Assembly (NCBI GenBank): GCA_902800055.1
Contig: CADCCW010000001.1
Coordinates: 14,932 to 78,931, forward strand
Source: an uncultured bacterium
Lineage (GTDB): Bacteria > Verrucomicrobiota > Kiritimatiellia > RFP12 > UBA1067
Length of the DNA stretch: 64,000 nucleotides
Direction: 5' to 3'
Positions 5,001 through 42,714 of the stretch are shown here, piece after piece (the first letter of the stretch is position 1; every line of letters starts with the position of its first letter). The notes beneath the pieces are model-generated. The model was not told where the DNA came from. It searched no databases and worked only from the letters and a program-made list of their open reading frames with translations. The position numbers were made by a program, and so were the translations under genes.

Positions 5001-6386
5001 CTACTTTGCGGCCGCGGCGGCGGCCTTGGCCTTCTCTGCGGCGATGCGCGCGCGGATGGACGCCTTCGCGCGGCGGCAGCTCTGGGTGATGGTGCGGTAG
5101 GCCGGGCAGCCGAAGCTGCACGCGCCGCATTCGATGCAGTCCATCACGTGCGCGTCCTCCGCCGCCTTGACGTCGTTCGCGTCCACGACCCGCGAGATGA
5201 GCGCGGGGTTGAGGTTCATCGGGCAGGCGCGGACGCACCGGCCGCAGCCGATGCACGCGCCCGACGCGTACTGGAAGACGCGCTTCTTCGAAAGAAGCAG
5301 CAGCCCCGAGGTCGTCTTGGTGGTGCCGATCTCCAGCGTCGAGACGGCGAAGCCCATCATCGTGCCGCCGGAGATCACCTTGGCCGGCGGCTCCTTCTCG
5401 CCGCCGCAGAACGCGACCAGGTCGGAGTACTTGGTGCCGCTCGGCGCCAGCACGTTCTTCGGCTCCGCCACGGCGTCGCCCGAGACCGTCGTCACGCGCT
5501 CGAGGAGCGGCTCGCCCTTCTCCACCGCGTCGGCTATCGCCGCGACGGTGCCGACGTTCTCCACCACGCAGCCGACGTCGATCGGCAGCGCCGGCGGCTC
5601 TGGGACTACGCGCCCGACCGTCGCGTAGATCTGGTGCTTTTCGCTTCCCTGTGGATAGAGAACCGGGAGGACGACGATCTCGACGTTGCCATCGATGTCG
5701 GCAAACGCCTTCTCCATCGCGGCAATCGCCTCGGGCTTGTTCGCCTCGATCGCAATGCGCACCGCCGGCCCGCCCAGGACCTTGCGCATGATCTCGACGC
5801 CGACGCGGATGCGGTCGGCGCGCTCGAGCATGACACGGAAGTCCGCGGTCAGATACGGCTCGCACTCCGCGCCGTTCAGGACCAGATACTCGCAGCGCTT
5901 CGCCGGCGGCGGATTGAGCTTGACGGCGGTCGGGAAGCCGGCGCCGCCCATGCCGCAGATGCCCGCCTGCTCGACGCGCTTCAGCAATTCCTCCCTCGAG
6001 GCCGTCTTCCAGTCGAGCGGCGCAAGAACGGGCGAAACGCCCGGAACCGCGCCCTCCGGCGCCTCTGCCGTCGTGTCCAGGATCACCGCGTCGGCCTTGG
6101 CGCCGGTCGGTCCCGGACGCTTCTCCACCGCCTTGACGAGGCCGTCCGCCGGCGCGCGCACGAGGACGGAGATGAAGCCGTTCTTCTCGCCGATCACCTG
6201 GCCGCGGCGCACGAAATCGCCCGCCTTCACGACGCACTTCGCCGGCGCGCCGAGGTGCTGGCTCATCGAGACGACCAGCTCCGCCGGCACCGGCATCCGC
6301 TCGATCGCCTTGCCGCGCGCGAGTTCCTTGTTGTAGTCGGGGTGGACCCCGCCCTTGAACTTAAACGGACTTTTGACCGTCTTCAT
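5001..6386 (-). CDS. rnfC: Rnf electron-transport complex subunit C (NADH/FMN-binding, 2x[4Fe-4S])
   Basis: KFKGGVHPDYNK N-terminus, GICGMGGAGFPTAVK, LNGAECEPYLTAD, and two ferredoxin motifs CIGCGRCVRACP and CIECGACSFGCP. Confidence 0.92.
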   Translation of the reverse strand: MKTVKSPFKFKGGVHPDYNKELARGKAIERMPVPAELVVSMSQHLGAPAKCVVKAGDFVRRGQVIGEKNGFISVLVRAPADGLVKAVEKRPGPTGAKADAVILDTTAEAPEGAVPGVSPVLAPLDWKTASREELLKRVEQAGICGMGGAGFPTAVKLNPPPAKRCEYLVLNGAECEPYLTADFRVMLERADRIRVGVEIMRKVLGGPAVRIAIEANKPEAIAAMEKAFADIDGNVEIVVLPVLYPQGSEKHQIYATVGRVVPEPPALPIDVGCVVENVGTVAAIADAVEKGEPLLERVTTVSGDAVAEPKNVLAPSGTKYSDLVAFCGGEKEPPAKVISGGTMMGFAVSTLEIGTTKTTSGLLLLSKKRVFQYASGACIGCGRCVRACPMNLNPALISRVVDANDVKAAEDAHVMDCIECGACSFGCPAYRTITQSCRRAKASIRARIAAEKAKAAAAAAK

Positions 6387-8451: not shown

Positions 8452-8472
8452 ATGGCAGTTTGTCCTTTTCGA

Positions 8473-8506
8473 GGTGTCTAGGTGTCTAGATTTCTAGGTT
8501 TCTAGG
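8473..8506. repeat. 8-nt period tandem array (GGTGTCTA x2, GATTTCTA, GGTTTCTA, GG..) in the rnfA-rnfB spacer
   Basis: Read directly from the sequence: ggtgtctaggtgtctagatttctaggtttctaggagac. Confidence 0.8.
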
Positions 8507-9499: not shown

Positions 9500-10993
9500 T
9501 CACTTCACCAGCGGACGGTCGAGCATCTTCTCGTAGAGCTCGATGTACTTCTTCGCGCACTCGGCGTGGTTGAAACGCTTGAGCGACTCCGCCATCACGC
9601 GCGCGATCTCGCGCTCCTTGACCTCCGGCGGCAGGTGGTAGAAGTCCATCGCCCGGTCCATCGCCCAGAAGAGGCCGTTGGAGTCGTAGGTGTCGAAGAT
9701 GAACCCGTTGCCGGTCGAGGCGTCGGGGTCGATCATCTCCACCGTGTCGTGGAGTCCGCCGGTGTTGTGCGCCACCGCGAGCGAGCCGTAGATCGGCGCC
9801 TGCATCTGGGGAAGCCCGCACGGCTCGAAGAGGGACGGCATCAGCGTGAAGTCCGACGCCGCGAAGCCGAGCTGCGAGAGGCGCCCGTCGAAGTCGTGCA
9901 CGCCGATGCGGGACTGCAGCCCGTGGAACTCGCGGATGTCCCAGAACGGCTGCTGGAACGGGCCGTTCGCGATGATGGCGAGCTGCGCATCGGGGTGCTT
10001 GTCGAGGAAGCGGTAGGTGATGTCGGTCAGGAGCTGCGGCCCCTTCTGAATCGGGTCGAGGCGGCTCGGCCAGAAGAAGAGCGCGCGGTCGGCGTTCTCC
10101 TCCAGCCCCAGCGCGTGCTGGAGCGCGAGCTTGTTCTTCCGCTTGGCCGCGGCGTGGTCCTCGGGACCGTACTTGAACGGGATCTTGTCGTCCGTCGCCG
10201 GGTTGTCCGCCGAGTCCGGCGCGTTGAGGATGCCCGCCGCGCAGCCGGCGTTGTACTTGTTGCGGATCTCGCTGCGGATCGAGTCCGGCACGAACGAGTG
10301 CCAGCCGTTGACGATCTCGGTGAGGAAGGTCGGCGAGACGGTGTTGATGAAGTGCGCGCCGAAGACGCCGGACGCCTGCAGGTCGATCTGGTTGCGGTCG
10401 CGCGACTCGAAGTAGTTGTACGGCGGATAGGAGTAGTAGAGGTGCATCCAGAACTCCGCCGCGTCGATGCCGGCGTCCTCGATCTGCGCGAGGGTGAGCT
10501 TCTGGGTGTGGATGTTGTGCACCGTGAAGAGGCACGGGATCCCCTCGCGCCGGGCGGCGGCGGGGACGAGGCCGGTCATCCAGTCGTTGCAGTGCACCAG
10601 GTCCGGCTGCACGCGGGGGATGATGTTGTTGATGACCTCGCGCTGGAACGCGAGCGCGAGCTTGATGTTGCCGTCGCCGCGCGAGTAGACGGTGTCGCGG
10701 TAGTAGAAGCAGCGGTCCTCGGCGAGGTGGATGCGCTCGTCGGGGAGGTGGCTCTTGTACTTCCGCAGCTCGTCGGCGACCAGCTGCGCGGTCTCGACGT
10801 GGAACATCCGCCGGTAGTGCGGCAGCGCCACGTGCACGTCGGCGCCGAGCTCGTGCAGCGCCTGCACCAGCGACGCCGAGACGTCGGCCATGCCGCCGGC
10901 CTTGGCGGACATCTTGCCGGCGAGGTTGCCCATTCCCTCCGGAAGATAGGTAATCTCCGGGGTGACGATCAGGATTCTCGGGTTCTTGGCCAT
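9500..10993 (-). CDS. glgA: Glycogen/starch synthase (GT5 family)
   Basis: The real start is MAKNPRILIVTPE at 10993; upstream track residues are a shadow. The KAGGMADV motif is the GT5 K-x-GGL-x-DV box. It is followed by HCNDWMTGLVPA and PSLFEPCGLPQM. Confidence 0.8.
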   Translation of the reverse strand: MAKNPRILIVTPEITYLPEGMGNLAGKMSAKAGGMADVSASLVQALHELGADVHVALPHYRRMFHVETAQLVADELRKYKSHLPDERIHLAEDRCFYYRDTVYSRGDGNIKLALAFQREVINNIIPRVQPDLVHCNDWMTGLVPAAARREGIPCLFTVHNIHTQKLTLAQIEDAGIDAAEFWMHLYYSYPPYNYFESRDRNQIDLQASGVFGAHFINTVSPTFLTEIVNGWHSFVPDSIRSEIRNKYNAGCAAGILNAPDSADNPATDDKIPFKYGPEDHAAAKRKNKLALQHALGLEENADRALFFWPSRLDPIQKGPQLLTDITYRFLDKHPDAQLAIIANGPFQQPFWDIREFHGLQSRIGVHDFDGRLSQLGFAASDFTLMPSLFEPCGLPQMQAPIYGSLAVAHNTGGLHDTVEMIDPDASTGNGFIFDTYDSNGLFWAMDRAMDFYHLPPEVKEREIARVMAESLKRFNHAECAKKYIELYEKMLDRPLVK

Positions 10994-12733: not shown

Positions 12734-12764
12734 CTGGCTGCTGGTTGCTGGCTGCTGGCTGTTG
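12734..12764. repeat. Heptamer array CTGGCTG/CTGGTTG (4 units) bracketed by GAACACT direct repeats, upstream of the oadA-like gene
   Basis: gaacaCTGGCTGCTGGTTGCTGGCTGCTGGCTGttgaacact. GAACACT occurs at 12729-12735 and again at 12764-12770. Confidence 0.8.
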
Positions 12765-13705: not shown

Positions 13706-14501
13706 CGATAAGGTCGGCCATGCGTGGCTTGGCGGCTTCGGCGGCGGCGATCACGTCGGCGTGGCTCAGCGGCGTGCGCGCGATGCCGGCGGCGAGGTTG
13801 GCAACGAGCGAGATGCCGGCGAGCTTCATGCCGCACGCCTTCGCCACCACCGCCTCTGGCACGGTGGACATGCCGACGACGTCGGCGCCCTGCGCCTTGT
13901 AGGCCTGGATCTCCGCCGGCGTCTCGTAGGCGGGACCGGAGTTGTAGGCGTAGACGCCGTCCATCATCCGCAGGCCGAGGCGGTTGGCGCCAGCGTGGAG
14001 CAGGTCGGCGAGGTGCTTGGAGTAGACCGAGGTCATGTCCGGGAAGCGCTCGCCCCAGTCGGGGTTGTGCGGGCCGATGAGCGGAGTGACGCCGGCCAGG
14101 TTGATGTGGTCGCGCAGGACCACGAAGTCGCCGGCGCGCAGCGCGGGGTTGATGCCGCCGGAGGCGTTGGTGAGGAGCAGCGTCTGGCAGCCCATGCGCC
14201 GGAGCATCTCGACCGGCAGCACCACCGGCTCCCAGCCCGCTCCCTCGTACCAGTGGCGGCGGCCGCACCAGGCGGCGACGAGCCTGCCGCCGCGGCGGTA
14301 GAGCACGAACTCGCCGGCATGGCCCTTCACGGTGGAAGCGCCGAGGCCGGGGATGTCGGCGTAGGATATCCGCGCGACAACCTCGTCGGTCCTGAGCGAA
14401 TCGCCCCAGCCGCTGCCGAGCACAATGCCCAGCGCCGGCGGCTCCCGGAAGCACGCGTCGGGGAAAACCGCCGCGGCCGCGTCGAATGTCTGTCTGTTCA
14501 T
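13683..14501 (-). CDS. Purine nucleoside phosphorylase (trimeric PNP/PunA family)
   Basis: The real start is MNRQTFDAAAAVF at 14501. Motifs: GIVLGSGWG, VKGHAGEFV, GRRHWYEG, LLLTNASGGIN, GPAYETPAE and GADVVGMSTVPE. Confidence 0.85.
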   Translation of the reverse strand: MNRQTFDAAAAVFPDACFREPPALGIVLGSGWGDSLRTDEVVARISYADIPGLGASTVKGHAGEFVLYRRGGRLVAAWCGRRHWYEGAGWEPVVLPVEMLRRMGCQTLLLTNASGGINPALRAGDFVVLRDHINLAGVTPLIGPHNPDWGERFPDMTSVYSKHLADLLHAGANRLGLRMMDGVYAYNSGPAYETPAEIQAYKAQGADVVGMSTVPEAVVAKACGMKLAGISLVANLAAGIARTPLSHADVIAAAEAAKPRMADLIDDFVLRL

Positions 14502-14508
14502 GGCGTGT

Positions 14509-14517
14509 AGTCTACCA
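14509..14517 (-). promoter_or_regulatory. Extended -10-like box TGGTAGACT, 7 nt upstream of the PNP ATG
   Basis: The minus strand reads GGTATGGTAGACTACACGCC-ATG. Confidence 0.35.
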
Positions 14518-14608
14518 TACCCCGCCGCCGCGCGCAAGTGCCGCGGCAGCGCCTGGCCATGCCCATGGCCTGACGCCAATGAGGACGGCAATACGCCTTC
14601 CGGCCTTT

Positions 14609-14617
14609 TGCTAAAAT
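14609..14617 (+). promoter_or_regulatory. Extended -10 box TGCTAAAAT upstream of the integrase (35-nt leader with Shine-Dalgarno)
   Basis: The plus strand reads TTTTGCTAAAATTCCGCACC...AAAAGGAATGAACAG-ATG. Confidence 0.4.
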
Positions 14618-14652
14618 TCCGCACCTACGGAAACAGCAAAAGGAATGAACAG

Positions 14653-15909
14653 ATGGCAAGGCAAAAAGGCACCGGAAACCTGCAGCGGGAAAAGAGCGGA
14701 CTCTGGACTGTCCGCGTTGGAATCAACGGGCGGCGGATCAGCCGCTCGAGCGGCACCGCCGACCGCGGCGAGGCGGAGCGCTTCCTCGGGCGGCTGCTCT
14801 TCCCGCTGGGGCTCGGCGACGAAAGACTACCGCTCGCCGAGGCGTGGCACCGATACGAGATGTCACCCAAACGGCGCGACATCGCGCGCACCACGTTGAA
14901 GTCCAAGCGGTCGGCGTGGATGCGCTTTGCGCGCTGGATGGAGGCAAACCACCTCGAAATCGGCAGCCTCTCGGAAGTTACCGAGGAGGCGGTCGCGGAA
15001 TACCTCGCCGAACTGCGCTGCCGCCACTCCTCCGCCACTTACAACAACCATGTCTGCATCCTCAGGGAAGTCTTCCGCCTGCTCGCGGAACGGGGCTGCG
15101 TGGGCGCGAATCCGTGGGACGGCGTAAAGCTGCTCGCTGGCGATTCCGTCAGCCGGCGCGAGCTCACCCTCGACGAAGTGGAACGGCTCTACGCCGCCGC
15201 CGCGGAGGCTGGGCCGGAATGGCGGCTCCTCGTAACGACCGGCCTCTACACCGGGCTCAGGCTCGGCGACTGCTGCCGCCTTACGTGGGCAAACGTCGAC
15301 TTCGGGCGGCGGACCATCCAGGTCATACCCGAGAAGACGAAGCGCCACATGCACGGCTGTCCGGTGACGATCCCCATCCACCCGCAGCTCCTCGCCGAGC
15401 TGAAGGCGCTTTACGCCGCGGCGGGTGCCGACGCGGACTACGTCAACCCGGCCGCCGCGGAAATGTACCTCAGGCACAACTGGGAAATCGACGACGGGCT
15501 GCGGCGGATCTTCAAGCGGGCGAACATAACCATGAGCGTCCGCATGGAAGGACGCAGCCGGCGAAGCGTCCTCGCCTCATTCCACAGCCTGCGGCACACC
15601 TTCGTCTCGCTCTCCGCCAACGCCGGAGTACCGCTCGCGGTGGTGCAGTCAATAGTCGGCCACTCGTCGACCGCGATGACGCGCCACTACTACCACGAGA
15701 ACGAGGAGGCGCTCCGCCGCGCCGTCGAGTCGATCCCGGCGATTGGCGCGGCATCGCCGGGGCCTGTCCCCGACGCGCCGACACGGCCAGCCGCACCAGC
15801 CGAATCGCCTGCGCGGCGGCTCAAGCGGCTCGCCCGCCTGCTCGCGCAAGGGCTGGTCAGCGACGCGGAATACGCCGCCGTCCGCACGCGCATCCTCGCC
15901 GGACTATAG
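14653..15909 (+). CDS. Phage-type tyrosine integrase with C-terminal SHOCT-like tail
   Basis: The real start is MARQKGTGNLQRE at 14653, preceded by an AAAGGAA Shine-Dalgarno. Catalytic pattern: GLRLGDCCRL, FHSLRHTF, GHSSTAMTRHYYH. The extreme C-terminus LKRLARLLAQGLVSDAEYAAVRTRIL resembles a SHOCT motif. Confidence 0.8.
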   Translation: MARQKGTGNLQREKSGLWTVRVGINGRRISRSSGTADRGEAERFLGRLLFPLGLGDERLPLAEAWHRYEMSPKRRDIARTTLKSKRSAWMRFARWMEANHLEIGSLSEVTEEAVAEYLAELRCRHSSATYNNHVCILREVFRLLAERGCVGANPWDGVKLLAGDSVSRRELTLDEVERLYAAAAEAGPEWRLLVTTGLYTGLRLGDCCRLTWANVDFGRRTIQVIPEKTKRHMHGCPVTIPIHPQLLAELKALYAAAGADADYVNPAAAEMYLRHNWEIDDGLRRIFKRANITMSVRMEGRSRRSVLASFHSLRHTFVSLSANAGVPLAVVQSIVGHSSTAMTRHYYHENEEALRRAVESIPAIGAASPGPVPDAPTRPAAPAESPARRLKRLARLLAQGLVSDAEYAAVRTRILAGL

Positions 15910-15936: not shown

Positions 15937-16272
15937 CTATGAGACCTTGGTGAGGAGTTCGCCGCCAAGGCGCAGGGCGGAGACGGCGAGCGAGAGGTTG
16001 TTCCCGGCCTGCTGCGCCTCGACGAGCAGGGTGTTGTAGTCGTTCTCGTTGAGCGCGACGATGGATTCGACCAGCTTCTTGTCCAGGAGCCCCATGTTGA
16101 GCGTCGCGTGGCGGACCATCGCGCCGGAGAGGTGCTCGCCCTCGCCGAGGTTCATCGCCTGCTCGGCCCGCGAGAGGTTGTAGGCGATGGCATCGAGCAT
16201 CGTGGCGCGCTTGGCCTTGACCGAGCCCCACTTCGGGTCGTTGTCCGGGCGCGGCGACGGCACGAGGAACAT
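15937..16272 (-). CDS. Hypothetical protein (possibly the 3' part of a frameshifted gene)
   Basis: Third codon positions are almost entirely G/C in this frame and the amino-acid composition is normal (N, K and E rich, helical). No recognisable family. See the finding on a possible frameshift near 16270. Confidence 0.5.
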   Translation of the reverse strand: MFLVPSPRPDNDPKWGSVKAKRATMLDAIAYNLSRAEQAMNLGEGEHLSGAMVRHATLNMGLLDKKLVESIVALNENDYNTLLVEAQQAGNNLSLAVSALRLGGELLTKVS

Positions 16273-16385
16273 CGAGGTGGCGCGCCATCGTCACCTCCGC
16301 GCCGCCCACCTTCAGCGTCTTCAAGGTGCCGGGCTTGGCGGAATCGAGTTCGCGGCGGGGCGGAAGGTTACAACACGGCGCGGGG

Positions 16386-16733: not shown

Positions 16734-17885
16734 TCACGCCGTTGGTTGTGTTTTCAAGCTGTGCGAAAGCTCCCTCCTCGCGGTTTCCAGCCGCGCGGTG
16801 AGCCGCGCGTACGCGGCGGCGCGGACTGATTCCCAGTCGCCGCGGTCCCTGAGCACGGCGAGCACGCGGCGCGTCACCCGCTCCCAGTCGCAGTCGTAGA
16901 CGCTGCCCTCGACGACCTGGCCGAAGTTGGCCAGCCAGTTGGCGAGCTTCGAGCCGCGCGCAATGCCGAGCCCCATGGTGCCGGCGTTCGCGGCGAGGAT
17001 CAGCAGATGCAGCCGGCTCGAGAGGACGACGTCGCATTTCGCCGCGGCTTCCACCACCGCCTCCGGCGTCGCGCCCGCGATGCACTCCACGCCAAGCCGT
17101 CCAAGGAGTGCGCGATCGGTCCTGGGGTTCATCGGGATGCCGAGGACGCGTGCGCCGGACGCGCGGACGTCATCAATCAGTTTGCTCAACCCAGCCAGGT
17201 CGGAAACCTGCCGCTGAGTCGAGATGCAGAGGCCGAGGGTGGGGGATGGGGAATGGGGAACGGGGAACGGGGAATGGGGAATGGGGGATGGGGGATGGGG
17301 GGCGGGGAGCAGGATTGCGGTGTCGGCGGCTACCTTGGCGCCGGAGAATCCCATCGTCGCCAGCATCGCCGCGCTCTCGGGGTCGCGCAGCCACACGCCG
17401 CGGCAGCGCGGCAGAATCGCCGCGATGCGCCGCGCGAGACGGGAACGGAGGCGCTGCTCGTACCAGTCGACGAGCCCAAGGCACTGGAGCAGCAGACGGC
17501 GCTTGCCGTGGGCCTTGAAGAAGACGGGGTTCAGTTCGTCGTCCATGCCGACGCCCCAGACGTAGGTCGCAACTCCCTCGCGCTGCGCGATTTCAAGGAG
17601 GTCAAGCGCGACGTCGGGATAGTCGGAAAGTCCTGTCGCGCCGCACCAGACGTAGGCATCGCGGCCGCGGACCGCCGCGGCAAAGCCGTCGAGCGGCGTT
17701 CCGGCGAAGCCGAACGGAGGTACCACCTCCACGCCCAGCAGCTCCGCAGTCGCCGGATCGGCCGTCGCCACCGCCAGCTCCACGCCGGGCAGCGACGACT
17801 TGAGCAACTTGACGACGCAGGCGACAATCGCCTCGTCGCCGATGTTGTCGCAGCCAAGCGGAATGCCCCCGAGCAGAACCCTCAT
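16734..17885 (-). CDS. Polysaccharide pyruvyl transferase family protein (carries an in-frame heptamer-repeat insert)
   Basis: N-terminus GGIPLGCDNIGDEAI, and a C-terminal half with VVLSSRLHLLILAANAGTMGLGI, typical of the CsaB/WcaK-like PS_pyruv_trans family. The insert reads PHPPSPIPHSPFPVPHSPSP. Confidence 0.7.
   Translation of the reverse strand: MRVLLGGIPLGCDNIGDEAIVACVVKLLKSSLPGVELAVATADPATAELLGVEVVPPFGFAGTPLDGFAAAVRGRDAYVWCGATGLSDYPDVALDLLEIAQREGVATYVWGVGMDDELNPVFFKAHGKRRLLLQCLGLVDWYEQRLRSRLARRIAAILPRCRGVWLRDPESAAMLATMGFSGAKVAADTAILLPAPHPPSPIPHSPFPVPHSPSPTLGLCISTQRQVSDLAGLSKLIDDVRASGARVLGIPMNPRTDRALLGRLGVECIAGATPEAVVEAAAKCDVVLSSRLHLLILAANAGTMGLGIARGSKLANWLANFGQVVEGSVYDCDWERVTRRVLAVLRDRGDWESVRAAAYARLTARLETARRELSHSLKTQPTA
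17241..17310. repeat. GGGGRAY heptamer array, about 10 units (G-quadruplex motif), in frame inside the pyruvyl transferase gene
   Basis: GGGGGAT GGGGAAT GGGGAAC GGGGAAC GGGGAAT GGGGAAT GGGGGAT GGGGGAT GGGGGGC GGGGAGC on the plus strand. Translated on the minus strand it gives PHPPSPIPHSPFPVPHSPSP. Confidence 0.9.
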
Positions 17886-25144: not shown

Positions 25145-27286
25145 TTACGGCATCACCCAGTAGCCGGGCAGGTTGCGGACATCCTTCGCTGGCGCGGGAC
25201 GGACCGGCGGCGGCGTCCCGGTCGGCGTCAGGAGGTAGCCGCACACCGACGCCGCCGGCGCGATCGTCTCCCAGACGGTATACTCGCTCGCCGCGACGGT
25301 CTGGTTCTCGAGATTGCCCCAACGCCGCCAGATCGGACACTTCGTAGCCAGCGACTTGTCGCCGCCGTACACCATTTCCACCGCCTTCGCCGGCATGCCG
25401 TAGTTCCAGCGGTACGGCGTTATCCCCGGTACATACTCCGCGATTCCGTCGACGTACGACGGCAGGTCGAGGAACGCGACGGGATAGACGCGGCCGAGTC
25501 CGCTCGTCAGCGTCGTTCCCTGCGGATTGCATCCGTTGTGGAAGTCGAGCGCGGCAAAGGCGGCGTCAAGGTATTTCGCCTTCCCCGAAAGCGCGTGTGC
25601 GGCGATCAGCGTCTGCGCGCGGCGGAGCGGATGGCTCTGTCCCCAGCTCATAGCGTGGCACCAGCCCTTTCCGGGAAAGTACCACGGGCACCGGTAGGCG
25701 TAGGCGCCCTCCACTTCCTTCACCATGTCGTTGGCGCGGTTCTCGACCTTGCGCTTCCACTCCTTCGCCAGCCACTCGGCCTCGGACGGCAAACCCAACG
25801 CCATCTCGCCGGCGAAGGAAAGCGCCCCCCACCTCCATTCGTTCTTCTTGAAGTCCGCCTGCGCCTCGGACCGGCGCTTCGCGAGCTCGTCGAGATACGA
25901 CTTCTCGCCGGTAAGCGCGGCAAGGTTGACCGCGGCCTTCACCAGCATGTTCGCCGGGAGCGTCTTCGGCTCCTCCCATTCGACGGTGCGGCTTTCCGTC
26001 GAGAGCCATCCCTTCTTCTTCGTCAGGTGGAACGTCTCATTTGACGGCGGCGTGCGCATGACATAGTCCCACGCGCGCTTCGCGGAGTCAAGATACTTCG
26101 CCCGAAACGACTCGTGGCAGCGCGCGAGGAGCGCGGCGTGCGCGGCGTAGGCGAGGGTGCTCGAGCGCGTCGCGCACGAGACGGCGTACTGGAGTGCATC
26201 GTCCTCGGCGGACTCGCCGGGGCGCGGATGGCGCGTCGTCTCGATCCAGGTGCCGACGCGGCCGTCCTTCCACTGGACGGCGAGGAGATGCCGAAGCCCC
26301 CACTCCGCCTCGTCGAGGATGTCGGGGATGCCGTTCGCGTTCTCAGGGATCGCGAGCTGTCCGTCGCGGAAATTGTCCGGCTTCATCAGATAGACGGCGC
26401 AGAGGTCGTTCACGATCGCGAGGTGCGCGGGGCGACGGTCGAAGTCTGCCGCGTCGTGCCATCCGCCGGAGACCGCGATGCGCTCGCCGTTGGCCCAGTC
26501 CGTGTTCTGCGCGATGATATCGAACCAGCGGACGTCCTTGGGGAGCTTTCCCTCCTCCGGCGCGAAATAGCCGCGCACGACGCTGGTGTGGCACGCGCCG
26601 GAGGTCCAGTGGGTATAGGGCTCGGTCTTCGCGATGCCGCAGCGCTTCTGGTAGAGGCCGCCCATGTGGACGCGGAAAGCGTCCTCGACCGCGCCGCTTG
26701 AGATGCGGAAATTCTCGCTCCTGCCGACGCCGTCGACGCGGATGAAGAAGGTGCCTTCGTTGGTGACGGACGAGAAGTCCAGCTCGTAGGTGTACTCGCC
26801 AGTGAAAGGCGTCCCCTCCTTGGTGAAGCCGTCGTCAACCCTGTGGCGAAGCGGGGCAAACGGGACAGGCGGAACGACCGGGACGAGCGTGGCGGAGTCA
26901 ACCAGCTCCCACTTCTTCTCTTCCCTCTTCCCTCTTTCCTCTTCCCTCATTCTCCACGCGCCGAGCTTCGGGCCGAGCCATGCGCCCATGTAGGCGAACT
27001 TAGGCTGATCCGGGGCGTAGCCGACCTGGTTCAACTTGAATAGCGGGCTCGGCTTCGCGGGGTCGTATTCCGGAAACGGCTTTTCGCTCGTGCGGAACAC
27101 GTTGTACATTATCCTCGCCTCGGGATTCTTCGCGAGCGGGTCCTTCTGTCCGTTCGCGGACGCCCAGAAGCCGGGCTCCGCGGCAAACGCGCGCCCCGCG
27201 CGGTCGTCGTCGGTCTGGTAGAGCGACGTATACGGGTCGAGGAAGCGCAGCATCGACGCGGCGACGAGGACTGCGAGGCTATGCAT
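25145..27286 (-). CDS. Glycoside hydrolase family 9-like protein with N-terminal Ig-like (CelD_N-type) module
   Basis: FKLNQVGYAPDQPKF is the N-terminal module. GGWHDAADFDRR is a variant of the GH9 GGW-x-DAGD box. Also DILDEAEWGLRHL, FHNGCNPQGTTLTSGLG and ASEYTVWETIAPA. It carries an in-frame Glu/Lys/Arg insert from a heptamer array. Confidence 0.65.
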   Translation of the reverse strand: MHSLAVLVAASMLRFLDPYTSLYQTDDDRAGRAFAAEPGFWASANGQKDPLAKNPEARIMYNVFRTSEKPFPEYDPAKPSPLFKLNQVGYAPDQPKFAYMGAWLGPKLGAWRMREEERGKREEKKWELVDSATLVPVVPPVPFAPLRHRVDDGFTKEGTPFTGEYTYELDFSSVTNEGTFFIRVDGVGRSENFRISSGAVEDAFRVHMGGLYQKRCGIAKTEPYTHWTSGACHTSVVRGYFAPEEGKLPKDVRWFDIIAQNTDWANGERIAVSGGWHDAADFDRRPAHLAIVNDLCAVYLMKPDNFRDGQLAIPENANGIPDILDEAEWGLRHLLAVQWKDGRVGTWIETTRHPRPGESAEDDALQYAVSCATRSSTLAYAAHAALLARCHESFRAKYLDSAKRAWDYVMRTPPSNETFHLTKKKGWLSTESRTVEWEEPKTLPANMLVKAAVNLAALTGEKSYLDELAKRRSEAQADFKKNEWRWGALSFAGEMALGLPSEAEWLAKEWKRKVENRANDMVKEVEGAYAYRCPWYFPGKGWCHAMSWGQSHPLRRAQTLIAAHALSGKAKYLDAAFAALDFHNGCNPQGTTLTSGLGRVYPVAFLDLPSYVDGIAEYVPGITPYRWNYGMPAKAVEMVYGGDKSLATKCPIWRRWGNLENQTVAASEYTVWETIAPAASVCGYLLTPTGTPPPVRPAPAKDVRNLPGYWVMP
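26912..26955. repeat. TCTTCCC heptamer array (about 6 units) in frame inside the GH9-like gene
   Basis: cttcttc TCTTCCC TCTTCCC TCTTTCC TCTTCCC tcattct. Translated on the minus strand it gives MREEERGKREEKKWE. Confidence 0.85.
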
Positions 27287-31675: not shown

Positions 31676-31684
31676 ATTTTAGCA
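31676..31684 (-). promoter_or_regulatory. Extended -10 box TGCTAAAAT upstream of the wzc-like gene (29-nt leader)
   Basis: The minus strand reads ATATATGCTAAAATTCACTGAATTATAAGGACATCTCACGCCC-TTG. It overlaps the stop of the upstream GT4 gene. Confidence 0.35.
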
Positions 31685-32980
31685 TATATTGGTGTAGAAA
31701 TCAACCAGTCTGGCGGCGAGGACAGCCCAGTCGTACTCATGCGCGGCGGCAACCCCGGCAGCGGACATCTCCGCGCGCTCCGCGAAAGCCTTGTCGACCG
31801 CCGCGTCCAGCGCCGCCGCATCGCCGGGTGCGAACACCGCCGCCGCGCCTGGATGCGCCGCGCAGAGCCTCCCGAGCCCGCCCACGTCGCTTGCCGCCAC
31901 CGGCAGCCCCGCCGCCCAGGCCTCGAGGACGACGATGCCGAACGGCTCGTGGCGGCTCGCGAGCACAAAGACGTCGGCGTTCCGGTACTCTGCGAGCAGC
32001 TCGGGGCTGCCCGGCTTCAGCGCGCCGACGAACGCGACGCGATCTGAGACGCCTAGCTCGACGGCGCGGCGCTCGAGCTCCTCGCGGTAGTCGGGCTGGG
32101 TGACAGGGCCAACCAGGCGAAGCGCGCGCCCAGGATGGCGCGACAGATGCTCGACGAGCGCCAGCTGGTTTTTCTGGCGGTCGATCCGCGCGACGCATAG
32201 GAGCGTGGCGGAGCTCCCGGAGTTTCCGGTTTCCCCGGAGTTGCCGGCGAAGAGGCGCGTGTCCACACCATTGGGCAGAAACATCACATGCGGGTGCTTC
32301 GCGCGATAACGCTCGTATTCGTCCTCGCCCACGCAGACGATGCCGTCCGCGTCCTCGGGGATGCGGCGGACCCAGCCCATCGCATAGTCGACGAGCTTTC
32401 CCCACGGCAAACGTCCGCGGGTCGGGGCCTTCAGGCTCTTCGCCTCCGCCGTCGGCACGTTTGCTCCGCCGCCGTGGAGGGAGATAACGGTTTTTGGTTC
32501 GGTAGTTTGGTGGTTGGGTGGTTGGGTGGTTGAGTGGGCAACCCTAAGGCACAGTTCCGCGATGCGCGCCATCGCGTGGCAATGGATGACGTCCGGCTGC
32601 CATTCACGGAGCGCCTTGCCAAGTCCCGGCACAAACGGGTTTCCGCCCTTGCGGTCGAGCTCGGCGACAAGCTGCTTCGGCATCGGCCACCAGGGATAGA
32701 CCGGCCTGAAGCGGAGGATTTCAATACCGTCGACAGTCTCTGCGAATTGTCTGTTTTTCCAACACAAAGAACACAGAGAGCGCAAAGAGCGCAAAGCCCC
32801 CAAAAAGCCCTTTGTGTCCTTTGTGTTCTTTGTGTTAAAATCTTTCCACAGCGCAGTTGTAGCGAAGATGCGCACTTCGTGCCCCGCTTCCTGCTGGGCC
32901 TTGGCGAGGTTCCACACCACCTGCTCGGTGCCGCCCCAGTCGTCGAACGAGAGCCGCCTCAGGACGTGCGCGATTCTCAT
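31679..32980 (-). CDS. Family 4 glycosyltransferase carrying two in-frame repeat-cassette inserts
   Basis: MRIAHVLRRLSFDDWGGTEQVVWNLAKAQQEAGHEV N-terminus. The C-terminal half reads LLCVARIDRQKNQ..., ASRHEPFGIVVLEAWAAGLPVAASDVGG. The inserts NTKNTKDTKGFLGALRSLRSLCSLC and STTQPPNHQTTEPKT interrupt the N-terminal domain. Confidence 0.75.
   Translation of the reverse strand: MRIAHVLRRLSFDDWGGTEQVVWNLAKAQQEAGHEVRIFATTALWKDFNTKNTKDTKGFLGALRSLRSLCSLCWKNRQFAETVDGIEILRFRPVYPWWPMPKQLVAELDRKGGNPFVPGLGKALREWQPDVIHCHAMARIAELCLRVAHSTTQPPNHQTTEPKTVISLHGGGANVPTAEAKSLKAPTRGRLPWGKLVDYAMGWVRRIPEDADGIVCVGEDEYERYRAKHPHVMFLPNGVDTRLFAGNSGETGNSGSSATLLCVARIDRQKNQLALVEHLSRHPGRALRLVGPVTQPDYREELERRAVELGVSDRVAFVGALKPGSPELLAEYRNADVFVLASRHEPFGIVVLEAWAAGLPVAASDVGGLGRLCAAHPGAAAVFAPGDAAALDAAVDKAFAERAEMSAAGVAAAHEYDWAVLAARLVDFYTNIC
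32489..32537. repeat. 8-nt period array (GTTGGGTG-type, about 6 units) in frame inside the GT4 gene
   Basis: ggtttttg gttcggta gtttggtg gttgggtg gttgggtg gttgagtg gg. Translated on the minus strand it gives HSTTQPPNHQTTEPKT. Confidence 0.85.
32761..32836. repeat. 76-nt hairpin-forming cassette built from 9-nt units (CACAAAG / CTTTGTG arms), in frame inside the GT4 gene
   Basis: AACACAAAGAACACA (32761-32775) is the exact reverse complement of TGTGTTCTTTGTGTT (32822-32836). The interior AGCGCAAAG x2 ... CCTTTGTGT continues the imperfect pairing. Translated it gives NTKNTKDTKGFLGALRSLRSLCSLC. Confidence 0.9.
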
Positions 32981-35841: not shown

Positions 35842-37830
35842 TTACCTGTAGCCTCCTATCAAAGAACGAAACGACAGCCACGAGTATTTCACGAGGCCGT
35901 AGGCGTAGCGACGCCACAGACGGCCAGGCTCCTGGACGATGCGGTACACCCACTCGAGGCCCGTCTTCTGCATCCACTTGGGCGCGCGCTTCACGCGGCC
36001 GGCGAGAAAGTTGAACGTGCCGCCGACGCCAATCATCGCGCCGACGTCAAGCTTCGCCTTGTTGCGGCCCATCCACAGTTCCTGCTTGGGGTTGCCGAGC
36101 GCGACGAAGAGGATGTCTGGCTTCGCGGCGTTGATGCGCTCGACGATCTCGGGCTGTGGCTCGTCCAGCTTCACGAAGGCCGGGTCGATGCCGGCAACTC
36201 TCAACCCGCAACTCTCAACTCCAAACTTCCCGAACGCCTCTTCGACCGCGTCCATGTCGCCGCCCAGCACATACACCGACAACCCCTCCTCCGCGCATCG
36301 GCGCAGAATCGCCGGCACCATGTCCGCCCCGGTGACGCGCTCCGGCAGCGGCTGGCGCAGAATCCGCGAGAGCGCGACGATCGGCATGCCGTCGGCGGTG
36401 ACGAGGTCGGCGTCCTTCAGGTAGCCCCAGAGCTCGTCGTTGCCGCCGAACGGCCAGCCGCTCACGGCGTTGGCGACGAAGTCGACGTTGAGCGTAGCGA
36501 CGACGAATGGGGAACGGGGAACGGGGAACGGGGAATGGTGTTGCCGCGCCATCGCGATGATGCGCTCCACCGCCTCGGACTCGGTCACCTTCGCGACCGG
36601 GATCCCGAAAAGGCGAGAAACGCCTCGCTCCCTCAACAGCTCCACAATCCCCTTCGCATGGTCTTCCCAGGAGAAGCGCTTGATCCACTCGAACCCGCGT
36701 TTTATCCGTGCCTCGCGCTCCGCGGCGAATTCATCGAGGAGCCGCGCAAGCGCCGCGGCGATTTCGTCGACGCTCTCGGGATCGAAGGTGAGCGCGACGT
36801 CCCCCGCGATCTCGCCCAGGGATCCGTTGTTCGAGCAGGCGCACGGGATACCCTGCGCCATTGCCTCAATGAGCGAAAGCCCGAAGCCCTCGAAGAGGCT
36901 GGGGAAGACGTAGAAACCGGCCTCTGACCAGAGCCGCTCCAGTTCCGCGGCGGGGACGAATCCGACAAAGCGGATGAACTCGGCGTGCGGCGAGGCGGCG
37001 GCGGCGGCGTGGACCGCCTCGGCGTCCTTCCAGTCCGCGCCGGCGAGGACGAGCGGATGCGCCGCGGCGGTTTCGCGCGGCAGGCGCGAATACGCCTCGA
37101 TGAGCCGCACGTGGTTCTTGCCCGGATGCTCGATGCGGGAGATGTAGAGGATGGCGGAGGAAGAAGGGATATTAGCGATCGAAGAGGTAGAAGCGATAGC
37201 TCGCTCGCCCTCAACACCCCTTTTATCCTTTTGATCACTTTCATCCCTTCCCCTTGAAAGCCCATTATACAGCACCGTCACCTGGTCCGCGCGGCAGTGC
37301 CAGAACTTCACCATGTCGTCCCTGGTGGCGCCGCTCACCGCGACGAGGTGCCGCGCCTTCTTCGCGTAGTGGGGGAGGACATGCGCGAGGTAGAACATCC
37401 TGAGGCGCGAGTACTTGCCGGGGATGTGGAAATTCGCGAGGTCATGCACCGTCGCCGCCGTCGGCAGCGGGTAGAACGCGCAGACGCGGCGGTTGGCGGC
37501 GCAGATGAAGAAGCCGTCGAAGTCGCCGCGGTGCCGGCGGATCCAGAACGGCAGCACGAAGAGGTGCCAGAGCATCGACAGCGCCGGACGCCGCGTCCAG
37601 CGCGGGGCGGAAATCGATGGTATCTGACATGGGACATCAGACGCGAGACGAGAGGTTTTCCCGCGTCTATCGTCTAGCGTCTCACGCCCAAGACGGAGTT
37701 CTTCTCCCGGTTCGCAAAGGAGCGTCAGTTCGTGGCCCTGCGCCGCGAGCTCGCGCACGACCTCGCGCACGTAGACCGAAATGCCGCTCTTGCCGCCGTC
37801 GTAGGGGACGCATGAGACGAGCAGTCTCAC
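35842..37830 (-). CDS. Bifunctional glycosyltransferase: GT4 domain fused to WecG/TagA/CpsF (GT26) domain; GTG start
   Basis: GTG 37830 forms a GTGA overlap with the upstream kinase stop. The N-terminal half is GT4 (ISRIEHPGKNH..., PSLFEGFGLSLIEAMAQGIPCACSNNGSL). The C-terminal half is GT26 (ATLNVDFVANA..., ADLVTADGMPIV..., ILFVALGNPKQELW..., IGVGGTFNFLAG...RAPKWMQKTGLEWVYRI). Two repeat inserts are present. Confidence 0.8.
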   Translation of the reverse strand: MRLLVSCVPYDGGKSGISVYVREVVRELAAQGHELTLLCEPGEELRLGRETLDDRRGKTSRLASDVPCQIPSISAPRWTRRPALSMLWHLFVLPFWIRRHRGDFDGFFICAANRRVCAFYPLPTAATVHDLANFHIPGKYSRLRMFYLAHVLPHYAKKARHLVAVSGATRDDMVKFWHCRADQVTVLYNGLSRGRDESDQKDKRGVEGERAIASTSSIANIPSSSAILYISRIEHPGKNHVRLIEAYSRLPRETAAAHPLVLAGADWKDAEAVHAAAAASPHAEFIRFVGFVPAAELERLWSEAGFYVFPSLFEGFGLSLIEAMAQGIPCACSNNGSLGEIAGDVALTFDPESVDEIAAALARLLDEFAAEREARIKRGFEWIKRFSWEDHAKGIVELLRERGVSRLFGIPVAKVTESEAVERIIAMARQHHSPFPVPRSPFVVATLNVDFVANAVSGWPFGGNDELWGYLKDADLVTADGMPIVALSRILRQPLPERVTGADMVPAILRRCAEEGLSVYVLGGDMDAVEEAFGKFGVESCGLRVAGIDPAFVKLDEPQPEIVERINAAKPDILFVALGNPKQELWMGRNKAKLDVGAMIGVGGTFNFLAGRVKRAPKWMQKTGLEWVYRIVQEPGRLWRRYAYGLVKYSWLSFRSLIGGYR
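36509..36538. repeat. GGGGAAY heptamer array (GGGGAAC x3, GGGGAAT) in frame at the GT4/GT26 domain junction
   Basis: gaatGGGGAACGGGGAACGGGGAACGGGGAATGGtg on the plus strand. Translated on the minus strand it gives HHSPFPVPRSPFVV. Confidence 0.9.
37158..37254. repeat. AT-richer low-complexity insert ending in a 9-nt period array (CCTTTTATC CTTTTGATC ACTTTCATC CCTTCCCCT) inside the GT4 domain
   Basis: Read directly from the sequence. Translated on the minus strand it gives GRDESDQKDKRGVEGERAIASTSSIANIPSSS, lying between the two Rossmann halves of the GT4 domain. Confidence 0.7.
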
Positions 37831-41386: not shown

Positions 41387-42343
41387 TTAGTTAAATACCT
41401 GCCAGTCGCGCCTCAGGTCCGGCGTGACGGCCCATTTTGCGCGGATTGCCGCGGCGATGCGCCGCAGCACCCGCACCTCCGGCGGCAGCGCGAAGGTCGA
41501 AAGTTCGCCCAACGTCCGCCGCCGCGCCACCCAGCGCAGCGCGCTGAAGACGCTCCTCGAGGCGTCGGAGAGCGCCGACACCTCGTCGTACGCATCGAGC
41601 CACGCCTCCCGCGCCCGCTCCCAGTTCGCGACCGGCTCGGCCTGCGGGCGGAACTTCCACGCCACCGCGGCGGAATAGAGCCCGTCGCCGAGCCGGTCCG
41701 CTCGCTCGTCCGCCCGCCACGCGTAGCGCCCGCCGGCGATGAGCCGCGCGTCGCCCGCGCCGAGCACGCACTTGTTGAGGTTGCGCGCGACGAACCCCCG
41801 GTCGCTCGACTCGTCCGCGAAGAGCAGCCCCATGCCGCGGTTCATCAGGAGGCGCGCGGCCTCCGTCCACGGCAGTTTCGCCGCGGGAATCTTCTCAATG
41901 GCAGCGAACAGCTCCGCCCCCTTCTTCCCGACGACGTCGAGATAGCCGCGGATCAGCTCCTGCACCATCAGGCGCGACTCGTCGTGCTTGAGCCGCCACG
42001 GCGTCTTCACCGCAAAGTCCACGTCCACGCCCAGCCGCTGCGTCCACTTCTCGGCAATTGGCTTCAATGCCTCGCCAACGGCTGCAATCGTCTCAGCCTC
42101 GGGCACGCCGTCTTCTGTAATCGCAAAGAAATCGAGGTCGTTCGACAGCACCGCCGTTCCCCGTTCCCCGTTCCCCATTCCCCGCTCTATCGCCCCGCCT
42201 TCGCCGCGGCCATAGCCGCCGCCGAGGACGACGCCTGCGAGCCTTGGAACGGCAAGCGCGGCAATCTCGCGCCCGATTTCGGCGCAAGCGTCGTCAATGA
42301 GCCGGTCAAGTTCCGGGCAACTGCCTGCAACATGCCGTCCCAT
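41387..42343 (-). CDS. Nucleotidyltransferase-fold (Pol-beta superfamily) protein with C-terminal helical domain
   Basis: GVVLGGGYGRGEGG...(insert)...LSNDLDFFAIT fits the minimal NTase pattern hG[GS]x9-13Dh[DE]h. The rest is helical and of no family I can name. The GGGGAAY array inserts between the G-rich loop and the DxD. Confidence 0.6.
   Translation of the reverse strand: MGRHVAGSCPELDRLIDDACAEIGREIAALAVPRLAGVVLGGGYGRGEGGAIERGMGNGERGTAVLSNDLDFFAITEDGVPEAETIAAVGEALKPIAEKWTQRLGVDVDFAVKTPWRLKHDESRLMVQELIRGYLDVVGKKGAELFAAIEKIPAAKLPWTEAARLLMNRGMGLLFADESSDRGFVARNLNKCVLGAGDARLIAGGRYAWRADERADRLGDGLYSAAVAWKFRPQAEPVANWERAREAWLDAYDEVSALSDASRSVFSALRWVARRRTLGELSTFALPPEVRVLRRIAAAIRAKWAVTPDLRRDWQVFN
42156..42184. 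repeat. GGGGAAY heptamer array (reverse orientation: GTTCCCC x3, ATTCCCC) in frame inside the NTase-fold gene
   Basis: ccGTTCCCCGTTCCCCGTTCCCCATTCCCCg on the plus strand. The coding (minus) strand therefore carries GGGGAATGGGGAACGGGGAACGGGGAAC, giving ERGMGNGERGT. Confidence 0.9.
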
Positions 42344-42404: not shown

Positions 42405-42704
42405 TCAGAGGCCAACGGTTACGAAGAAGGCGTCGAGGGCCTCGTGCGCGTAGCGGCACGCGCCCGCCGGACCCGGATAGGCCGAGACCATCTTGTGGTA
42501 GTTCCAGCCGATGACGGCCATCGCAAGCACGCCTACGGCCACACCGACGACCGTGCCGAGCGGACCGGCCAGAGGCAGAAACTCCGCGCCGGGCATGACG
42601 AACGCGCCCCAGCCGACGGCGAAGCCGAACGAAAGCCCCCACGCCGAAAGCATCGAAAGATGCTTCCCGGTTCCGCCGGCATTATCCTTGTCGGTTCCGC
42701 TCAT
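42405..42704 (-). pseudogene. Remnant: first ~99 codons of an APC-permease (sensor-kinase-type) gene
   Basis: From Met 42704, MSGTDKDNAGGTGKHLSMLSAWGLSFGFAVGWGAFVMPGAEFLPLAGPLGTVVGVAVGVLAMAVIGWNYHKMVSAYPGPAGACRYAHEAL is collinear with the N-terminus of the APC-kinase at 32977..35841 (FSALGAWAVAFGCAVGWDVLSLPLTGFLPKAGPAGTVLGLAVAALAMVVIAWNFHYMMVKCPGPGGVYSYAKKAF). It stops after about two TM helices. Confidence 0.6.
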
Positions 42705-42714
42705 CGTCCCATGC

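Follow-up and report, generated by a model that had tools for sequence, protein, structure and literature searches.

Three GGGGAAY arrays in the 64-kb window analysed here, a contiguous stretch of gut Kiritimatiellae DNA, are probably genuine heptanucleotide microsatellites of a G-rich, quadruplex-prone class, which sit in permissive protein loops, have been changed by slippage and are translated into passenger peptides. The sites would belong with the G-rich heptamers of Xanthomonas (GGGAATC) and Nostoc (GGGGAYT) and, more broadly, with the long simple-sequence repeats in which heptamers dominate. In this Kiritimatiellae lineage, they appear to occupy a few structurally permissive loops and linkers, together with intergenic spacers, alongside other 7-, 8- and 9-nt arrays and palindromic inserts. 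A heptamer array gives one 7-residue period in any frame, since seven and three have no common factor, and because GGGGAAY is stop-free in all six frames, it can be read either way, as G-E-R-G-T-G-N or as P-F-P-V-P-R-S. Slipped-strand mispairing presumably changes the length of the arrays. Of the changes in coding DNA, those of three units (21 nt, 7 aa) alone would persist, so that the genes stay open, and intergenic arrays show steps of one or two units; the translated peptide would be a passenger rather than a selected feature. Slippage alone does not explain the presence of one 7-mer at many unrelated sites per genome, or of both orientations in one loop. The unit may have spread to these sites by template switching, by short-patch conversion or because G-tract heptamers are intrinsically biased towards expansion.

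The G-rich strand of the arrays is the plus strand at 17241-17307 (array 1) and 36509-36536 (array 2) and the minus strand at 42156-42183 (array 3). Their presence, first reported in the initial annotation, was confirmed with a 21-nt array pattern that, at up to two mismatches, gave 11 matches against 0.00 expected from 100 dinucleotide shuffles. The three host ORFs are minus-strand genes, as had been claimed, and each stays open through its array. Array 1 has about ten units of the form GGGGRAY, with ~10 G-tracts, and reads in order GGGGGAT, GGGGAAT, GGGGAAC (twice), GGGGAAT (twice), GGGGGAT (twice), GGGGGGC and a final GGGG; TRF describes it both as 8.7 copies of period 7 and as 3.2 copies of period 21. 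The mRNA is C-rich (CCCCRTT). The host gene (16734-17885, minus strand) encodes a polysaccharide pyruvyl transferase (PF04230) of 383 aa, in which the array peptide, PHPPSPIPHSPFPVPHSPSP, spans residues ~193-215 and falls in a low-confidence loop of the AlphaFold model (pLDDT <50, residues 189-212). Searching PDB sequences with the profile of the pyruvyl transferase yielded no match. Exact look-up of the window's protein also gave none, probably owing to a strain difference, and orthologues were gathered by homologue searches instead.

Array 2 (three GGGGAAC units and one GGGGAAT, C-rich in the mRNA) lies in a gene (35842-37827, minus strand) for a fusion glycosyltransferase of 661-662 aa that combines GT4 with a WecG/TagA (GT26) module. 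It is translated as HHSPFPVPRSPF, at residues 428-439 of 662, with HSPFPVPRSPF falling in the loop that follows the first conserved helix of the GT26 module. The array had been placed at the GT4/GT26 junction, but it is slightly off that boundary, ~50 residues past the Glycos_transf_1 match and ~35 before the WecG Pfam match. Array 3 (one GGGGAAT and three GGGGAAC units, G-rich in the mRNA) encodes RGMGNGERGT, residues 53-62 of the 318-aa product of 41387-42343 (minus strand), between the motifs GGGYGRGEGG and LSNDLDFF. It is the sole array of the three near the 5' end of its gene, arrays 1 and 2 being mid-gene. The description of this host as a nucleotidyltransferase (NTase) needs qualification: the protein has no Pfam match, and its AlphaFold model matches nucleotidyltransferases of the ANT, AadA, KNTase and HalB types only moderately (E 1e-4, TM 0.4-0.55). 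No Rfam family reached its gathering score anywhere in the window, and the arrays are therefore free of overlap with known RNA.

Several other arrays and inserts occur in the window. The heptamer array noted earlier in the GH9 gene is present, although its unit is better given as CTCTTCC on the plus strand (sense GGGAAGA; 4.4 copies, 26918-26948, minus strand), and it lies inside the CelD_N domain; the same loop is occupied by GGGGAAC in locus L087 and by GAGTCAG in L023. A GT4 gene at 31679-32980 contains an octamer array, CCAACCCA (5.4 copies, 32495-32537, minus strand; peptide STTQPPNHQTTEP), and an inverted pair of 9-nt arrays, AACACAAAG (four copies) and CTTTGTGTT (three copies), that forms a hairpin (32761-32836, minus strand; z -6.2). 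Both are missing from the orthologue in L212, and in Kiritimatiellae RGIG6720 (L099) the loop of the octamer array holds seven GGGGAAY units instead. Five length-hypervariable hot spots were found among the GT4-GT26 orthologues, each matching a TRF array of the window. The array 2 hot spot measures 4-42 aa in orthologues; hot spot 5 holds an AGAGTTG-type heptamer array (36195-36221, minus strand), and hot spots 2 and 1 hold repeat-like inserts (37219-37246 and 37663-37682, minus strand), the last of which ranges from 0 to 50 aa. In L212, hot spot 2 is filled by a GGGGAAY array (GNGERGTGGGE). Two arrays, to which no strand is assigned, are intergenic: CTGGCTG, correctly described as such before (four copies, 12734-12761, upstream of an oxaloacetate-decarboxylase-like gene), and the octamer AGGTGTCT (4.4 copies, 8472-8506, between rnf genes). 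All nine coding arrays counted in the window are within polysaccharide-cluster genes (~19 kb), with none in ~37 kb of other coding DNA, a concentration that could reflect function rather than tolerance.

We compared ~120 orthologues of each host protein, ~360 proteins in all. The array loops are length-hypervariable hot spots in these families, filled by differing 7-, 8- or 9-nt arrays or by short hairpins. The loop of the pyruvyl transferase contains CCCCRTT in the window, L025 and L050, GGGGAAY in the reverse orientation at the identical site in L045 and L069, and CGAACCA, CCAACCCA, GCAGAGGC or hairpins in other orthologues. The insert of the NTase-like protein varies from 5 to ~55 aa, and GT4, GH9 and hybrid histidine kinase proteins are further hosts whose hot-spot loops hold variable repeats. 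Many orthologues are without any array. None of the ~360 proteins was a distant orthologue with the same peptide encoded by non-repetitive DNA. Since orthologue loops hold unrelated repeats or reversed GGGGAAY, the peptide is not the conserved thing; together with the low-confidence loop of the AlphaFold model, this bears out the earlier proposal of a DNA-level element tolerated in protein loops.

The breadth of the phenomenon was assessed in 607 kb of Kiritimatiellae DNA, a sample biased in that the loci from relatives lie around the same polysaccharide gene cluster. Arrays of at least three copies numbered 49 for period 7, 28 for period 8 and 13 for period 9, against 3, 5 and 1 in a Markov control, and periods 3 and 6 were nearly absent. 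GGGGAAY was the commonest family, with 15 arrays at eight or more protein sites. Long ORFs contained 74 of the 90 arrays of periods 7 to 9 (~80%); in 58 of these 74 the units were stop-free on both strands, and stop-containing units were intergenic only. Outside this sample, (GGGGAAY)3 is present in cyanobacteria, Gemmatimonadota, Xanthomonadales, Verrucomicrobia, Chloroflexi and others, and GGGGAAY is found in frame within DNA polymerase III alpha, MetH and MenC-like genes of other phyla. Heptamers of cyanobacteria known as STRR sequences were reportedly described by Mazel et al. in 1990. Inverted pairs are formed by other units in the Kiritimatiellae and by GGGGAAY itself in Rhodanobacter and Longimicrobium loci.

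That the arrays expand and contract is evident from strain alleles 21 nt apart. Array 1 occurs at 45, 66 and 87 nt, and array 2 has four units in the window and seven in L224 and P0242. Coding arrays of close strains differ by 21 nt (three units) only, and the A/G pattern within them is that of duplication of a 21-nt block. In intergenic DNA, the close strain L002 differs by 14 nt (two units) in the CTGGCTG array and has one extra unit (+8 nt) of AGGTGTCT.

The initial annotation had suggested that the arrays could be contingency loci, since one 7-nt unit more or less shifts the frame of a surface-polysaccharide gene. On this view, arrays one or two units longer or shorter would switch such genes OFF or ON in the manner of neuO in E. 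coli K1. Consistent with this idea, the unit length is not a multiple of three, the arrays lie inside polysaccharide-gene ORFs and the window's coding arrays are bunched in the polysaccharide cluster; slippage is active, with length alleles in two of the three arrays, and contigs of several assemblies break inside arrays, which could mean population heterogeneity. However, the assembled sequences from which frame was judged included no out-of-frame allele among 80 metagenomic pyruvyl-transferase orthologues and none among ~100 sequences overall, and the phase-variation reading is therefore unsupported. Neighbour-anchored strain samples, in which sampling is independent of an intact host gene, were also entirely in frame, with 45-, 66- and 87-nt alleles only at array 1 and 28 nt at the NTase-like array in 13 of 13 assemblies. 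By comparison, neuO is phase-OFF in 65.6% of 64 genomes and has 3-53 repeats (PMC13001214). Two of the three arrays are mid-gene, away from the 5' end, in other phyla dnaE-like and metH genes carry such arrays in frame as well, and phase variation was judged unlikely for the G-rich heptamer class by Rehm et al. (PMC4692102). We regard a contingency switch as quite improbable. Still harder to credit is selection at the protein level, in which the Pro-rich or Gly-rich peptides would serve as flexible linkers: the inserts are in loops and linkers, and their peptides are low-complexity and linker-like, but one site gives PFPVPRS, GNGERGT, mostly unrelated peptides or just a 5-residue loop, and the item common to different genes is the DNA repeat, not the peptide. 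A somewhat better case, although one we still consider unlikely, can be made for retention of the arrays for G-quadruplex (G4) or i-motif folding that would regulate transcription, translation or co-translational folding, or start recombination. The three arrays have G4Hunter scores of 2.07-2.64 and are the sole sites in the 64 kb with an absolute score of at least 1.8; a four-layer RNA G4 of -30.6 kcal/mol is predicted by ViennaRNA with its gquad option, and related heptamers fold into G4 in vitro (PMC4692102). Arrays 2 and 3 have exactly four G-tracts each, and they lie in the longest and fourth-longest exact-match tracts between the window and an 80.5%-identical relative. In the wider array set, however, no peak at four tracts was seen (three tracts in nine arrays, four in six, five in three, six in three, seven in one and ten in one). 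Hot spots are also occupied by the non-G4 units CGAACCA, GCAGAGGC and GAAAATG, and the many orthologues without an array likewise argue against this function. The G-rich strand is sense in eight cases and the C-rich strand in eight, and both orientations occur at one site; thus, the arrays are unlikely to act on mRNA or template in a strand-specific way. Single-strand folding found no hairpin in the GGGGAAY arrays (z -1.3 to +1.0).

The explanation that competes most closely with resident microsatellites, possible though doubtful, is that arrays and hairpin inserts are mobile or convertible copy-and-paste mini-elements, similar to Rickettsia palindromic elements (RPEs) or MITEs, that enter particular loops by insertion or gene conversion and pass from one co-resident species to another, with slippage acting only afterwards. 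An 84-nt hairpin insert is identical at 84 of 84 positions in four lineages, against 73-78% identity in their flanks, whereas a lineage with closer flanks (81%) has a decayed copy (69%), and other hot-spot inserts show 92-98% identity versus 75-80% for their flanks. We used these pairwise insert-versus-flank identities because an NJ tree of flanking protein sequence was too star-like for counting independent gains. Such greater conservation of some inserts than of their flanks, together with the long exact-match tracts around arrays 2 and 3, suggests that there was transfer or conversion in the recent past, or else constraint on the nucleotide sequence, and would not be predicted by a purely neutral-junk model. 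Rehm et al. speak of "increased genomic stability", which was considered as a match for this conservation and set aside, as it refers to gene order (PMC4692102). Also in favour of mini-elements, palindromic hot-spot inserts have dispersed copies within loci, identical repeat peptides recur in all three unrelated protein families, inserts are present in one and absent from the other of the window and L212, and a single site accepts either orientation of one unit. Against them, the GGGGAAY arrays showed no shared flanks, terminal inverted repeats or target-site duplication, no candidate transposase is linked to the arrays, and boundaries were blurred rather than clean in the one filled-versus-empty comparison (window versus L212). 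An intrinsic expansion bias would account for the occurrence of GGGGAAY across many distant phyla as well as transfer would. A related and similarly tentative proposal is that 30-160-nt inserts (heptamer and octamer arrays, hairpins) may form an active population in the Kiritimatiellae of rumen and gut, being copied or converted in frame into defined loops and moving between co-resident species, since inserts that are 100% identical occur inside genes only ~75% identical. Such a system would be RPE-like but smaller, microsatellite-based and horizontally spreading, and its conversion might be started by the G4 or hairpin structures themselves.

For the preferred reading, that of slippage-prone microsatellites in permissive loops, the class itself is already published, and what is new here is that the arrays live mostly inside genes, in frame and at hot spots. 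Rehm et al. (2015, PLoS One; PMC4692102) described dispersed G-rich heptamers (Xanthomonas GGGAATC, Nostoc GGGGA[C/T]T) on both strands and in inverted pairs, mainly intergenic, with length variation between relatives and G4 formation by CD. Like these, the window arrays are tandem heptamers with a G-tract and an A/T-rich 3-nt loop; GGGGAAY arrays are dispersed on both strands (three in the window, 15 in 607 kb of related DNA), four-unit arrays are frequent and inverted pairs occur, lengths differ between close relatives (45, 66 or 87 nt; four versus seven units), and in other phyla GGGGAAY is not tied to one gene class. The present arrays differ in their unit, GGGGAAY, and in their host, Kiritimatiellae of the PVC group. 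Whereas the published class has a strong non-coding bias, here ~80% of arrays are in ORFs and in frame, including all three GGGGAAY arrays of the window, and they use recurrent protein loops common to non-G4 arrays. The published class also prefers four units; here, four tracts are found in two of the three window arrays, and in the wider set six arrays have four tracts and nine have three.

Heptamers are the commonest long simple-sequence repeats, with polymerase slippage as the proposed cause, according to the summary of Mrazek 2007 in PMC4679880. As in the repeats of 5-11-nt units outlined there (Mrazek, Guo & Shah 2007), the heptamer period is dominant and a few families occupy many loci; in-gene repeats in those surveys, as outlined in the same source, are mostly multiples of three, whereas here non-multiples are the rule in genes and change in three-unit steps. 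The resemblance to neuO (AAGACTC, E. coli K1; PMC13001214) lies in a translated heptamer array within the ORF of a surface-polysaccharide enzyme, where full length needs a multiple of three; unlike the 5'-end array of neuO, with its 3-53 units and an OFF state in about two-thirds of genomes, the window arrays are short, imperfect and mostly mid-gene, with no OFF allele in the sequences examined. RPEs (Ogata et al. 2000, 2002), in the outline given in PMC10969869, are selfish palindromes of ~100-150 bp found in frame in unrelated genes. By that outline, the arrays share with RPEs a single sequence family in frame in many unrelated genes, surface tolerance and passenger peptides, but they are without a palindrome or fixed ends, and only the neighbouring hairpin inserts are RPE-like.

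A class of bacterial microsatellites so far regarded as mostly intergenic can live in genes at large scale; a period coprime with three, combined with stop-free units, lets the arrays be read through whatever their frame or orientation. The identity of some inserts across diverged genes suggests an undescribed process of transfer or conversion, which, if true, would be a new route for selfish DNA to shape proteins. For protein engineering, the hot spots flag permissive loops. For annotation, the arrays show up in metagenome-assembled genomes as low-complexity "insertions", and they cause contigs to break. Translational bypass, insert splicing and assembly chimeras were considered as sources of the inserts and rejected, as the inserts are always in frame, stop-free and recurrent in independent assemblies. 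Truncated NTase-like proteins of 249 and 263 aa, which were considered as frameshift products, proved to be contig-end artefacts, their contigs starting at or in the array.

The three GGGGAAY arrays reported by the initial annotation are real and highly non-random: a three-unit 21-nt pattern with at most two mismatches matched 11 times in the window (65.9% G+C), against 0.00 matches expected from dinucleotide shuffles. Array 1 (about ten GGGGRAY units, 17241-17307) and array 2 (GGGGAAC x3 plus GGGGAAT, 36509-36536) are G-rich on the plus strand, and array 3, the reverse complement of GGGGAAT plus GGGGAAC x3 (42156-42183), is G-rich on the minus strand. As also annotated, all three host genes are on the minus strand. 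Each is an open ORF, encoding a polysaccharide pyruvyl transferase (PF04230, 16734-17885), a GT4-WecG/TagA (GT26) fusion (35842-37827), and a 318-aa protein (41387-42343). The respective array peptides are PHPPSPIPHSPFPVPHSPSP, HSPFPVPRSPF, and RGMGNGERGT. The 318-aa protein has no Pfam match; its AlphaFold model (pLDDT 93) resembles ANT/AadA/KNTase/HalB nucleotidyltransferases with E about 1e-4 and TM 0.4-0.55, so that the label NTase-like seems reasonable but not firm. The interesting question raised by the arrays is how they spread.

Each host protein was compared with about 120 aligned orthologues. In the pyruvyl transferase, a hypervariable segment bounded by ..ADTAILL and TLGLCISTQRQV.. 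carries repeat peptides that differ by lineage, and in the AlphaFold model the insert (residues 189-212, pLDDT <50) sits between the halves of the fold. Across 80 metagenomic loci this hot spot spans 48-162 nt of DNA; it is filled by the CCCCRTT unit in the window and two other loci (L025 and L050), by the same unit flipped, i.e. GGGGAAY, in L045 and L069, and elsewhere by CGAACCA, the octamers CCAACCCA, CCTCAAAC, and GCAGAGGC, or short hairpins. The spacer between GGGYGRGEGG and LSNDLDFF in the NTase-like protein is 5 to about 55 residues long, and the GT4-GT26 family has five length-hypervariable hot spots, every one matching a tandem-repeat (TRF) array in the window. Further hot spots occur in a GT4, a GH9 (within CelD_N), another glycosyltransferase in which both orientations are present (GNGEWGTGN vs SPFPVP), and a hybrid histidine kinase, whose inserts occupy the HATPase_c loop and the linker between kinase and receiver. 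By these alignments, the peptide at these loops is not conserved among orthologues. The proposal that a DNA element is tolerated in protein loops is thus borne out, the same loops in orthologues holding unlike repeats or one unit in opposite orientations, and a protein-level role for the array peptides is excluded because of the orientation flips. In a GT4 gene, two 9-nt arrays arranged as an inverted pair (AACACAAAG x4 / CTTTGTGTT x3, window 32750-32845) form a stable predicted hairpin (z -6.2), translated as NTKNTKDTKGFLGALRSLRSLCSLC; the orthologue in the syntenic relative L212 lacks it.

A census by period of arrays with three or more copies covered 607 kb of DNA from the Kiritimatiellae, the group in which homologue names place the organism; the sample names indicate rumen and gut metagenomes. 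Periods 7, 8, and 9 yielded 49, 28, and 13 arrays, against 3, 5, and 1 in a Markov control, and periods 3 and 6 were almost absent. Long ORFs hold 74 of the 90 arrays, 58 of the 74 having units that are stop-free on both strands. Units with stops on both strands make up 7 of the 16 intergenic period-7/8/9 arrays, versus 3% of random k-mers; nearly all such units contain CTAG (e.g. window 8472-8506, L076 4839-4888, L070 5556-5612, and L042 4053-4100). GGGGAAY, the commonest family (15 arrays at no fewer than eight protein sites), has no stop in any of the six frames. Repeat peptides common to all three unrelated protein families include TNHEPRT, PVPRSPF, TTQPPNH, ESVKCKVE, KLESKVGVGE...LQLETPT, and GNGERGT.

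In close strains (93-98% nucleotide identity), nearly all indels of at least 3 nt relative to the window fall within arrays: -21 nt at 17261, +8 nt at 8490 in an intergenic octamer array, and -14 nt in the intergenic CTGGCTG array. Strain sampling anchored on the neighboring cupin and STAS genes, and hence independent of an intact host gene, recovered pyruvyl-transferase alleles of 45, 66, and 87 nt, GT26 alleles of 4 or 7 units, and, in 13 of 13 assemblies, an NTase-like array of 28 nt. Duplication of a 21-nt block (CATT-CGTT-CGTT) is evident from the A/G pattern across the units. Unit number therefore does change among strains, as the initial annotation had anticipated, but its suggestion of a phase-variation switch is not supported by these sequences. 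None of the 80 metagenomic pyruvyl-transferase orthologues is out of frame, in a set biased toward intact genes because the best tblastn matches were kept; in contrast, of 64 complete genomes, 65.6% carry neuO, a true heptanucleotide switch with 3-53 repeats, in the phase-OFF state (PMC13001214). Apparent truncations to 249 and 263 aa proved to be artifacts of contigs that start at the array. Several assemblies break within arrays: contigs of several independent assemblies end there (L221-L223, and L214 at 1-8), and a 100-N scaffold gap (L008 15563-15662) covers the arrays at window 36195-36782. The arrays are thus a practical cause of assembly breaks and truncated gene calls.

Some inserts are more conserved than their flanks. 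An 84-nt hairpin-type insert at the pyruvyl-transferase hot spot, encoding ENGKCRMENELDNSTFSILHSQF, is identical at 84/84 positions among four lineages (L016 3176-3259, L022 1236-1319, L028 6553-6636, and L034 3609-3692), whereas the flanking coding DNA is only 73-78% identical, with third-position differences starting within about 10 nt of the insert. In L023, the flanks are nearer to L016 (81%) and the insert copy has decayed (69%). The pattern suggests recent horizontal spread or conversion confined to the insert, or else nucleotide-level constraint. Three more inserts show 92-98% identity versus 75-80% in their flanks. The window and L212 are 80.5% identical over 18 kb; their longest exact-match run (95 nt, window 36509-36603) starts at array 2 and takes in its immediate flank, and the fourth longest (74 nt, window 42138-42211) spans array 3 and its immediate flanks. 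Conversely, L015 and L018 have 96% identical flanks and quite different arrays, and at least five hot-spot inserts present in either the window or L212 are absent or replaced in the other. Taken with the identical inserts, these differences show that turnover is fast at certain sites, and that recent sharing or constraint applies elsewhere. Palindromic inserts have extra copies in the same loci. L043 has three in-frame copies of a GC-rich mini-hairpin that encodes GRAGSPLPA, two of them in a hybrid histidine kinase and the third in the pyruvyl transferase (5241-5268, 5999-6027, and 10684-10712). The L066 insert contains a 54-nt palindrome with further copies at L066 6042-6095 and L043 12253-12307.

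Species-representative genomes contain (GGGGAAY)3 at no fewer than 120 loci; among the matches listed, most are cyanobacterial, the others including Gemmatimonadota, Xanthomonadales, Verrucomicrobia, Kiritimatiellae, Chloroflexi, and Streptomyces. Most arrays of low-GC cyanobacteria lie outside long ORFs. Clear in-frame arrays occur in a DNA pol III alpha gene (PHP domain), metH (activation domain), a menC-like gene, and a cyanobacterial pyruvyl transferase (L100, Gemmatimonadota; L166, Rhodanobacteraceae; L174 and L112, cyanobacteria). Rehm et al. (2015; PMC4692102) described heptamer repeats, GGGAATC in Xanthomonas and GGGGA(C/T)T in Nostoc, that are dispersed on both strands with many inverted pairs, vary in length between relatives, and prefer four units; their function was unknown, and phase variation was judged unlikely. 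Heptamers are the commonest long simple-sequence repeats, with slippage the proposed cause, according to the summary of Mrazek 2007 in PMC4679880. The best-supported account is that the arrays are DNA-level microsatellites of this known G-rich class. What is new is their intragenic, in-frame, hot-spot-bound setting: the published repeats are 89-93% and 68% intergenic, whereas those of this lineage lie mainly inside genes.

The G-quadruplex (G4) potential stressed by the initial annotation is high: |G4Hunter| reaches 1.8 or more in the window only at arrays 1-3 (2.07-2.64), ViennaRNA predicts four-layer RNA quadruplexes, and circular dichroism (CD) showed G4 formation by the Rehm repeats. Three results speak against a strand-specific G4 function: GGGGAAY arrays in the 607-kb census are split 8:8, without bias, between the two orientations with respect to the host gene, units unable to form G4 fill the same hot spots, and tract numbers across the wider set of arrays have no peak at four. 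Functional G4 may exist, but is unneeded to explain the data. Under the microsatellite account, arrays in this lineage would live mainly inside genes at permissive loops, be readable in any frame and either orientation, and change length by slippage, with only 21-nt steps passing selection. The route by which one unit reaches many loops, and the cause of insert identity across diverged genes, are what we infer rather than observe, which leaves room for a copy-or-convert process like that of Rickettsia palindromic elements, although we consider it less likely than not.

Two other strain differences were seen in the window. Five strain-level assemblies lack 82 nt (42441-42522) within a short minus-strand ORF (42405-42755) that seems to be what is left of the N-terminal part of an amino-acid-permease/histidine-kinase gene. 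Close strains L002-L006 have 24 nt in place of about 350 nt of the window (15980-16350); the replaced segment carries a minus-strand 111-aa ORF (15937-16272) adjoining a phage-type integrase gene (14425-15909).
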